Shown here: in pieces, positions 42,806 through 44,671 of the stretch
How positions within the stretch are numbered: position 1 is the first letter of the stretch
Layout of the letters: every line of letters begins with the position of its first letter
Assembly: GCA_964388275.1 (NCBI GenBank)
Contig: CAYLZD010000020.1
Location: 3,232-67,231, forward strand
Source of the DNA: an uncultured Chromatiales bacterium
GTDB taxonomy: Bacteria > Bacteroidota > Ignavibacteria > SZUA-365
Direction of reading: 5' to 3'
Length of the DNA: 64,000 bases
Translations under genes and position numbers: made by a program
Notes under the pieces: generated by a model
Told to the model about the DNA's origin: nothing
Database searches by the model: none
Seen by the model: the letters and a program-made list of their open reading frames with translations, nothing else

Positions 42806-43951
42806 TCAAACGCGCCGACCGGCGAGGGAGAGCGCCAGCTCCGCAACGCGCGAGGACGCTCCCGGCGTCCCAAGTTTATCCCGCACCGCCAGGAGGCGCG
42901 CGCGCATGCCTTCACGAGCCTCAGCGCTTGCGAAAAAAGGTGAAAGCGCCTCTGCCAGGGCCTCGGCGGTCAAGTCGCTCTGAACGAATTCCGGGGACAC
43001 GGTTTCTCCCGCGAGTATGTTGACCATGCCGATGTTCCGGACCGTGATAAGTCGCTTTCCGATCTGGTAGTTCAGCCATCCGGTCCTGTACACTACCGCC
43101 ATGGGCGTTCCGTAGCAGGCCGTTTCCACGGTGGCCGTGCCGGATGTCACCATGGCGGCATGCGCATGCTGCATGAGGCCGTGTGTCGCGTTGCGCAGTA
43201 GCGCAGCGTCTTCATGGCCGCGCAGATGAGGCAGGTAATGGCTGTCCGGAAGCCGCGCCGCGCCAATCGCCCTCGCGCAGCCGTGGCGCTGCGAGAGTAT
43301 GCGCGACGCTTCGAGCATGACCGGGAGCATGCGTCTGACCTCCTGGGCGCGGGACCCTGGGAGCAGCGCGAGAATAGGACGCTCGGGAAGCCCTGTTGAT
43401 GCCAGGAATGCGCCGCGGTCGATTTCGGGCAGGATTTCCATGAGCGGATGGCCGACGAAGGTCGATGGGATGCCGAGTCTCCGGTACATCTCCTCCTCGA
43501 ACGGGAAGGCGACCGCGATATGGTCGACAAGTTCCCTCATAGCGGCCGCCCGCTTTCCGCCCCATGCCCAAACCTGAGGGCTTATGTAATACAGCACCGG
43601 AATGCCCGCTGCTTTCGCCGTGCGGGCGAGCCGCATGTTGAAGCCTGGGTAATCGATGAGTATCAGGGCGTCGGGCCGCCTGCGCAGCAGTTCATCGCGG
43701 CAGCGTTTCAGCATCGCGCGCAGAAAAGTGAAGCGCCGCGCCACTTCGATGAAGCCCATCACGGATGTGTCCCTGACGTGGTACAGGCATTCGCAGTCCT
43801 CGCCTTCCATCAGATCTCCACCGATGCCGAAAATGCGGACTCCCGGCGCCCGGTTGCGCAGAGCGGCCGCAGCTCGCGCGCCGTACATGTCGCCCGAGCT
43901 CTCGCCCGCAACCATCATGAACGACGGTCCGCCGTTTATCTGAACAGCCAT
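42806..43951 (-). CDS. lpxB: Lipid A disaccharide synthase
   Basis: AGESSGDMYG, IDYPGFN, YYISPQVWAW, FPFE, VGHPL, LLPGSR, SGTATVE; start set at MAVQIN. Confidence 0.95.
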   Translation of the reverse strand: MAVQINGGPSFMMVAGESSGDMYGARAAAALRNRAPGVRIFGIGGDLMEGEDCECLYHVRDTSVMGFIEVARRFTFLRAMLKRCRDELLRRRPDALILIDYPGFNMRLARTAKAAGIPVLYYISPQVWAWGGKRAAAMRELVDHIAVAFPFEEEMYRRLGIPSTFVGHPLMEILPEIDRGAFLASTGLPERPILALLPGSRAQEVRRMLPVMLEASRILSQRHGCARAIGAARLPDSHYLPHLRGHEDAALLRNATHGLMQHAHAAMVTSGTATVETACYGTPMAVVYRTGWLNYQIGKRLITVRNIGMVNILAGETVSPEFVQSDLTAEALAEALSPFFASAEAREGMRARLLAVRDKLGTPGASSRVAELALSLAGRRV

Positions 43952-44508
43952 ATTGCGACAATCACGGCGATGATCAGCGCGAAAGCTTGAAGCGTCCTGG
44001 CCTCCGATTGGCGGCCGGCCCGCCAATCGGGTTTGGTCTTCCGGGCGCCCGGCCATGGTGAAAGCCGGAACATGAAGCGCGGAACCGCGGCGCAATAAGT
44101 CCGGTATTCGTCGCCGAAACGCTGTATCAGAAAGCGCTCCTCCTCGCGGACGATCAGCGAGTACTGTATCGAGAAAAACACCAGGGCGGCCAGCGGCAGC
44201 CAGGGCATGAGAGCCATGGACATGACGCCCACTCCGAGATACATCATGATGTTTCCTAGATACAGGGGATTGCGCGTGTGCGCGAAGGGGCCGGCGGTCA
44301 CAAGACGGCTGGCGCCCACCTCGCCGGTGACTCGAGTTTCCGCTCCCACGTGCAGCACGCCCCAGGCCCTCAACGCTTCGCCTGCGAGGGCGAGGACGAA
44401 GCCGGACGCCAGGCTCGCGAGGGTGGGCCGCGCGAATATCAACATCACCGTCAGGAACGGAACAGGGGTGTAACCGCGGTATTTGAAGAACAAGGCGCTG
44501 GCGTTCAT
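43936..44508 (-). CDS. Isoprenylcysteine carboxyl methyltransferase (Ste14/ICMT) family membrane protein, LmtA-like
   Basis: FFKYRGYTP, GEALRAW, LVTAGPFAHTRNPLYLGN, EERFL..FGDEY..Y...VPRF; overlaps the lpxB start. Confidence 0.85.
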   Translation of the reverse strand: MNASALFFKYRGYTPVPFLTVMLIFARPTLASLASGFVLALAGEALRAWGVLHVGAETRVTGEVGASRLVTAGPFAHTRNPLYLGNIMMYLGVGVMSMALMPWLPLAALVFFSIQYSLIVREEERFLIQRFGDEYRTYCAAVPRFMFRLSPWPGARKTKPDWRAGRQSEARTLQAFALIIAVIVAIWLFR

Positions 44509-44543
44509 TAGCGCAAACTAATATCGAAAGGGAGCAATGCCAA
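44509..44543 (-). promoter_or_regulatory. Sigma70-type promoter, apparently leaderless, for the ICMT-lpxB operon
   Basis: Minus strand TTGGCA, 17 nt, TAGTTT, 6 nt, ATG (44508). Confidence 0.55.
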
Positions 44544-44671
44544 GAGATCCCGCATGATACCGGTGCGTCCGCTCGCGTTTCCATTCACGCTGAGGACCGG
44601 ATTCGTAATTTCGGAGGATTGCTTATATTGCCTTGTTGAATGTCGCTCAGCGCGAAGATCACGCACCGCAC

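Follow-up and report, generated by a model that had tools for sequence, protein, structure and literature searches.

A predicted ICMT-fold membrane methyltransferase paired with lpxB in Ignavibacteria, a candidate for lipid A methylation

The window analysed here is a 64,000-nt stretch of contig CAYLZD010000020.1 (positions 3,232 to 67,231 of the forward strand; assembly GCA_964388275.1), deposited as an uncultured Chromatiales bacterium and placed by GTDB in the Ignavibacteria (Bacteroidota; SZUA-365). On its minus strand, a gene for a predicted S-adenosylmethionine (SAM)-dependent integral membrane methyltransferase with the fold of isoprenylcysteine carboxyl methyltransferase (ICMT) overlaps the start of lpxB, which encodes lipid-A-disaccharide synthase. 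The two genes stand together in nearly all of the relatives examined, and in some lineages a methyltransferase of this family is fused to an LpxB-related glycosyltransferase. The best-scoring curated family of the methyltransferase is LmtA of Leptospira interrogans, described as a lipid A Kdo2 1-phosphate O-methyltransferase (TIGR04571; Boon Hinckley et al. 2005, as cited in PMC4402001). With moderate confidence, the window protein is read as using SAM to methylate lipid A or a precursor of it, most likely on the 1-phosphate; that it has some role in lipid A tailoring, whichever the acceptor, is more likely than not.

The methyltransferase-lpxB pair and its conservation

The methyltransferase gene occupies positions 43936..44508 of the minus strand, from an ATG start to a TAA stop at 43938..43936, and encodes a protein of 190 residues. 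It is followed on the same strand by lpxB (42806..43951), which starts with the ATG at 43951..43949 and encodes 381 residues. The end of the first gene and the start of the second share 16 nt in different frames (43936..43951, minus strand), exactly as the earlier note had described, and this overlap is a possible site of translational coupling. The identity of the downstream open reading frame (ORF) as LpxB comes from profile searches (TIGR00215, 235.6 bits with a cut-off of 190.25; PF02684, 267 bits), and the single PF02684 match in the 4.4-Mb, 98%-complete genome makes it the sole LpxB. The only doubt about the overlap concerns the lpxB start codon. The one alternative in frame before the GE.SGD motif is the ATG pair of Met-12 and Met-13 (43918/43915), from which the overlap would be replaced by a 17-nt spacer. 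Overlapping lpxB starts are also found in the nearest relatives, loci L005 and L008 (-4 to -19 nt). The lpxB frame additionally stays open upstream, giving a 592-aa ORF (42806..44584, minus strand) that was considered as an LpxB-methyltransferase fusion and rejected, the frame being merely open through the methyltransferase gene. It remains open for 592 codons because the DNA is GC-rich, and it could be miscalled as a long LpxB.

The conservation of this arrangement was followed in 109 genome-derived loci, of which 80 come from a one-genome-per-species scan covering Ignavibacteria, Melioribacteraceae, Kryptonia-type metagenome-assembled genomes and the cultured Stygiobacter electus, and 29 from a 400-genome sample of the phylum. 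lpxB lies immediately downstream on the same strand in 108 of the 109 loci, and the lone exception sits on a contig cut off 8 nt past the methyltransferase gene. Over the same loci, LpxB identity to the window protein falls as low as 31% and the other neighbours vary, with mazG and ftsX adjoining the pair in 0/109 loci each and psd in 4/109, all of these being close relatives of the window. Measured from the methyltransferase stop to the closest plausible start of lpxB, the spacing has a median of 1 nt; it does not exceed 20 nt in 78 of the 91 scored loci, 32 of them with overlapping genes. This measure is somewhat biased to small gaps because the start nearest the stop is chosen. The pairing of the two genes is not local chance. 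The lpxB co-occurrence survey that the earlier note had proposed thus came out in favour of a strongly conserved linkage, and natural fusions back it.

The fusions are P0274 (619 aa), its fragment P0216, and P0295 (609 aa), in which an N-terminal LpxB-related glycosyltransferase is followed by a C-terminal methyltransferase of the window's family. P0295 is encoded on a 102-kb contig and carries the Joint Genome Institute name lipid-A-disaccharide synthase. The glycosyltransferase part of these proteins finds its best matches in TIGR03492 or TIGR00215, well under the respective cut-offs, while the C-terminal part aligns with the window protein along its entire length at 36-42% identity, N-terminal motif included.

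Other domain arrangements were seen among more distant ICMT-type proteins. In P0298 such a domain is fused to RfaE domain II (heptose-1-phosphate adenylyltransferase, of the lipopolysaccharide (LPS) core), and in P0296 to a YbdK/GCS2 carboxylate-amine ligase. P0128, P0142, P0186, P0219 and P0239 are tandem proteins of 410-604 aa with two ICMT-type domains, the first domain of P0128 matching the LmtA profile through to the C-terminal end of the profile.

Search scores in the phylum sample are bimodal. Orthologues of the methyltransferase (E 1e-52 or better) are present in about 66 of the 98 genomes of the window's class and in none of the approximately 300 genomes from the remaining classes, which reach 1.5e-19 at best. 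Five class genomes that lack the gene were examined; all five have lpxB, and none has a remnant of the methyltransferase upstream of it. In two of the five, lpxB forms part of an overlapping lpxB, DUF374, lpxK string (L124:1423-4069 and L127:1492-4081), a layout that differs from that of the window. Since lpxB persists where the methyltransferase is missing, the latter would be an accessory tailoring gene and not a core step.

The larger family reaches far beyond these genomes. An exhaustive search of cluster representatives returned 62 clusters at E 1e-30 or better and 1679 at 1e-10 or better, with the signature motifs kept down to about 33% identity, and a metagenome scan seeded with distant members contributed 80 further loci. 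Among metagenome loci with at least 45% identity to the window protein and room downstream, lpxB is found downstream in 31 of 34, and the same holds for 11 of 11 loci in a sister metagenome clade (L161-L176, L192) at 35-44% identity. One of the three exceptions in the first set is L140, where the methyltransferase gene overlaps that of a GnnA-like oxidoreductase (match to PDB 7bvj at 1.4e-57), another lipid A gene. A third layout occurs in L178 (1352-4418) and L179 (1475-4582), where the order is lpxB, a TIGR03492-like paralogue of lpxB, then the methyltransferase gene, with overlaps of 4-8 nt; members of the L179-type cluster are named Candidatus Xenobia (Eremiobacterota) and 'bacterium CPR1'. 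These other lineages provide independent cases in which the methyltransferase is linked or fused to genes of the LpxB or GnnA type.

Fold, cofactor-site motifs and relation to LmtA

The window protein is recognised by two Pfam families, PEMT (PF04191), its top match there with 41 bits (cut-off 25), and ICMT (PF04140) with 32.9 bits (cut-off 24). Five membrane helices are predicted, including a family-specific C-terminal helix at residues 162-189. An AlphaFold (AF2) model built on an alignment of 80 relatives has a predicted local distance difference test score (pLDDT) of 88.6. When compared through VIA-align, this model superposes on the eukaryotic ICMT 5vg9 with a Z-score of 13.2 and a root-mean-square deviation (rmsd) of 2.0 Å over 133 residues, and on Ma-ICMT 4a2n with a Z-score of 11.0 and an rmsd of 3.0 Å over 144 aligned residues, all within residues 1-148. 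Unrelated structures in the same comparison score Z 6 or less, clearly under the ICMT matches. In contrast with residues 1-148, the segment 150-190 is without counterpart in the ICMT structures; it comprises a conserved S-E-x-R-T-L-Q motif and the additional membrane helix.

Sequence conservation in the family is dominated by the N-terminus and by the positions that correspond to the ICMT cofactor site. The N-terminal motif F-x-x-R-[SG]-Y-T-P-x-P, spanning Phe-8 to Pro-17 and reading F-K-Y-R-G-Y-T-P-V-P in the window (44458..44487, minus strand), is invariant in the methyltransferase family. Residues 79-86, R-N-P-L-Y-L-G-N (44251..44274, minus strand), are the counterpart of the ICMT RHPxY motif and align to R-H-P-M-Y of Ma-ICMT. 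Similarly, Glu-123 and Glu-124 (44137..44142, minus strand) form part of the ICMT 'EE' motif and align to the EE of Ma-ICMT; both segments are invariant in the 80 relatives. RHPxY...EE is the name given to the cofactor-site motif of the ICMT/Ste14 family; a search of the paper library for this name returned nothing. The histidine of RHPxY is replaced by asparagine across the entire window-type family, in which the cofactor-site motifs RNPxYxGN, QY, EE and FG..Y are all invariant or nearly so. Model and alignments together give a SAM-dependent, integral membrane methyltransferase of the ICMT fold with its cofactor-site motifs retained, whose catalytic activity is predicted.

The relation to LmtA is visible in curated-profile searches. 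TIGR04571 is the top NCBIfam match of the window protein with 55.7 bits, residues 31-152 aligning to profile positions 48-169. It is also the top match for each of 10 diverse members and for all 80 aligned relatives (best E 1.4e-21). In several relatives the alignment is collinear from residues 4-189 to profile positions 7-200, thereby spanning far more than the approximately 80 C-terminal positions over which these proteins match the isoprenylcysteine methyltransferase model (NF040696). The genome encodes three further ICMT/PEMT-type paralogues on contigs C25, C21 and C71 (L002:1159-1845, L003:1447-2046 and L004:1444-1962), none of which adjoins a lipid A gene, and these reach only 27-36 bits with the LmtA profile.

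Between the window's family and LmtA stand proteins of 240-262 aa whose match covers the whole of the LmtA profile (65-106 bits) and which have both an insertion after helix 1 and the C-terminal approximately 50 positions. These intermediates have F-F-[KR]-Y-R in common with the N-terminal motif of the window's family, Phe-8 and Arg-11 being invariant, but not T-P-x-P, an observation that bears indirectly on the N-terminal LmtA motif which the earlier note had likened to FKYRGYTP. In a quick IQ-TREE tree calculated without authentic LmtA, paralogues C25 and C21 lie apart from the assemblage formed by the window's family and the intermediates, while C71 sits on a very long branch in a part of the tree that lacks resolution.

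Proposed reaction on lipid A and alternative explanations

A complete lipid A pathway is present in the genome, since lpxB, lpxC/fabZ, lpxA, lpxK and waaA are all found in it. Outside the window, lpxC/fabZ and lpxA form one string with the gene of a GnnA-like GFO/IDH/MocA oxidoreductase (G000:C1:103966-104958; L211:6967-7962), whose product matches PDB 7bvj at 7.9e-57. GnnA-like genes are encoded by 147 of the 151 sampled genomes of the class, which makes a class-wide unusual lipid A backbone probable. Thus, the backbone in the window's genome and in its class is probably built on the diamino-sugar GlcN3N, as in Leptospira. The co-occurrence of GnnA with the methyltransferase does not discriminate, as GnnA-like genes are also present in families without the methyltransferase.

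In the Raetz pathway, LpxB condenses UDP-2,3-diacylglucosamine with lipid X on the cytoplasmic side of the inner membrane, and the product inherits its 1-phosphate from lipid X. The methyltransferase would be made together with LpxB from one message. It would take SAM from the cytoplasm into an ICMT-fold active site that opens to the inner leaflet. Working from this same side of the membrane, it would act on the lipid substrate or product of LpxB, or on a later intermediate. The likely reaction would be O-methylation of the 1-phosphate, as by Leptospira LmtA. We infer the substrate (lipid A or a precursor) and the stage of the pathway because the protein would be co-made with LpxB and is fused to an LpxB-type domain in some lineages, and the acceptor, the 1-phosphate borne by lipid X, because it resembles LmtA.

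For the single promoter named in the earlier note, the sequence around the pair offers one weak candidate. This sigma70-like promoter match lies 5' of the methyltransferase gene (44554..44583, minus strand) with 9 of 12 consensus positions, 0.4 such matches being expected by chance. No sigma70-like site was found inside the methyltransferase gene in the promoter scan, the consensus of which does not cover promoters of the FCB group (Fibrobacteres-Chlorobi-Bacteroidetes). The stretch delimited by the earlier note ends at 44543, 35 nt upstream of the methyltransferase ATG. The gene map places the intergenic region 44509..44632 between the pair and a divergent plus-strand string of purC-like, psd, pssA and purQ genes, and mazG lies 3' of lpxB and convergent with it. 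A further element, on the plus strand at 44003..44031, consists of a 12-bp GC-rich inverted repeat and a T-rich tail; it is terminator-like, yet lies inside coding sequence, antisense to the 3' portion of the methyltransferase gene.

Several observations weigh against assigning the window protein to 1-phosphate methylation. The curated LmtA cut-off of 325 bits is far above the 55.7 bits of the window protein and the 42-69 bits of its relatives, and the window protein covers only positions 48-169 of the 252-position profile, the last approximately 50 positions being absent from the family. On the tree, the backbone order of the subfamilies is not resolved. Leptospira lmtA itself is not known to be linked to lpxB. 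Two loci inside the lpxB-linked clade, L144 and L158, have no lipid A gene nearby, and other clades at 34-44% identity adjoin cation-efflux, thiolase or sugar-epimerase genes with no link to lipid A. The acceptors of ICMT-fold enzymes may be carboxyl, amine, thiol or phosphate groups, which are not distinguishable by sequence, and no lipid A structure for Ignavibacteria was found in the paper library searched. Given scores of 42-69 bits for a cut-off of 325, the methyltransferase belongs to a subfamily of its own; it is not orthologous to LmtA. The 'LmtA-like' label of the earlier note therefore holds in the ICMT fold, in the coupling to lpxB and in LmtA being the best-scoring curated family, and fails where membership of the LmtA family itself is concerned. 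By these comparisons the family of the window is best described as an LmtA-like yet distinct subfamily with a predicted function. The clades in unrelated contexts further limit the association with lipid A to particular clades of the larger family.

Those clades, together with L144 and L158, are also the observations that favour a different substrate altogether, such as an unrelated membrane lipid or a prenylated molecule, with the coupling to lpxB reflecting inherited co-expression of envelope genes. The database name of the family, the generic 'isoprenylcysteine carboxylmethyltransferase family protein', would suit this explanation as well. However, lpxB is the sole neighbour kept while the other flanks change, and the linkage recurs in three arrangements plus protein fusions, in distinct clades and phyla. 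Inheritance alone is not expected to give such a pattern, and an unrelated substrate is regarded as doubtful.

A second explanation retains lipid A or LPS tailoring and moves the methyl group to another acceptor, either a carboxylate of Kdo or a uronic acid, which would become esterified, or a hydroxyl or amine of the GlcN3N backbone. The linkage to lpxB, LpxB-like and GnnA genes fits this proposal equally well. Esterification of a carboxylate is the canonical chemistry of ICMT, and NF040696 is the second-best match in 80 of 80 relatives; the probably unusual backbone suggested by the class-wide GnnA-like genes likewise speaks for it. Against this, the LmtA profile outscores the carboxyl-methyltransferase model, aligning over positions 7-200 where the latter is matched over its last approximately 80 only. 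In addition, the acceptor substrate and the product of LpxB, to our knowledge, bear a 1-phosphate and no carboxylate. Methylation at an acceptor other than the 1-phosphate is thus considered unlikely.

The earlier note had offered PEMT-like N-methylation of the phosphatidylethanolamine made by the neighbouring psd and pssA products as its own alternative, and this can be largely set aside. Pfam PEMT is indeed the top Pfam match and both genes lie within 2.5 kb of the methyltransferase gene, but PF04191 matches all four ICMT-type genes of the genome, so that the name carries little information. Being on the opposite strand, divergently transcribed within the purC-like string, psd and pssA belong to another operon, and they are neighbours only in the 4 of 109 loci noted above, which makes this explanation very improbable. 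The remaining proposal, a non-catalytic membrane partner that anchors the peripheral enzyme LpxB, is compatible with the overlapping genes and with the LpxB-like fusions as signs of a physical complex, but has equally little to recommend it in view of cofactor-site motifs whose conservation argues for retained catalysis and of the third of the sampled class genomes that keep lpxB in the absence of the methyltransferase.

Methylation of lipid A or a precursor on the 1-phosphate is hence the preferred assignment, and it would bear on endotoxin structure. In Leptospira, the only bacteria for which lipid A phosphate methylation has been shown, the methyl group takes a negative charge away from the endotoxin anchor, and innate immune receptors are reported to recognise that lipid A in an unusual way. 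A search of the literature found no paper connecting lpxB with an ICMT-type gene and no lipid A methylation outside Leptospira. If the assignment is correct, lipid A phosphate methylation would be far more widespread than thought, extending across a bacterial class and, linked or fused to LpxB-type genes, elsewhere, and the lpxB-linked methyltransferase would be a ready genomic marker for it. The prediction is directly testable, since the gene also occurs in cultured strains such as Stygiobacter electus (locus L080). A wider and rather speculative proposal, of which we are doubtful, is that the family represents a widespread, unrecognised component of lipid A assembly. The methyltransferases would associate physically with glycosyltransferases of the LpxB type. 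They would methylate the 1-phosphate on lipid X or disaccharide-1-phosphate, early and as an integral step of assembly instead of a late decoration. For most Ignavibacteria, and for several uncultured phyla such as Xenobia/Eremiobacterota, phosphomethyl lipid A would then be the default anchor of the outer membrane.

Comparison with known systems

With PEMT/Opi3 (PF04191) the window protein has a common superfamily, scoring above the gathering cut-off, but its family displays no conserved linkage to phospholipid genes. The likeness to Ste14/ICMT enzymes (5vg9, 5v7p and 4a2n; PF04140, NF040696) is more extensive. Residues 1-148 have the same predicted fold (Z 11-13.2), with RNPLY in place of RHPxY followed by EE. 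In contrast, identity is about 20%, the N-terminal motif is a different one, and an extra C-terminal helix is preceded by the S-E-x-R motif. No CaaX-type prenylated proteins are known to us as substrates of a window-type enzyme in these bacteria.

A comparison can also be drawn with the LpxB-related glycosyltransferases of TIGR03492, which is the best match of the N-terminal domains of P0295 and P0274 and of the middle gene of L178 and L179, all joined to the window's methyltransferase family. In the window, by contrast, the partner is a true, single-copy LpxB encoded by a separate gene, and the TIGR03492 matches themselves reach 38-62 bits for a cut-off of 219.

The closest known system is LmtA. 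Like LmtA, the window protein is a polytopic membrane protein of the predicted ICMT fold, and many of its relatives align collinearly with the profile, from the N-terminal F..R motif up to position ~200. Both are tied to lipid A, LmtA by proof and the window protein by prediction. In contrast to LmtA, it is some 60 residues shorter, missing the insertion after helix 1 as well as the end of the profile, and its family is coupled or fused to LpxB-type genes.

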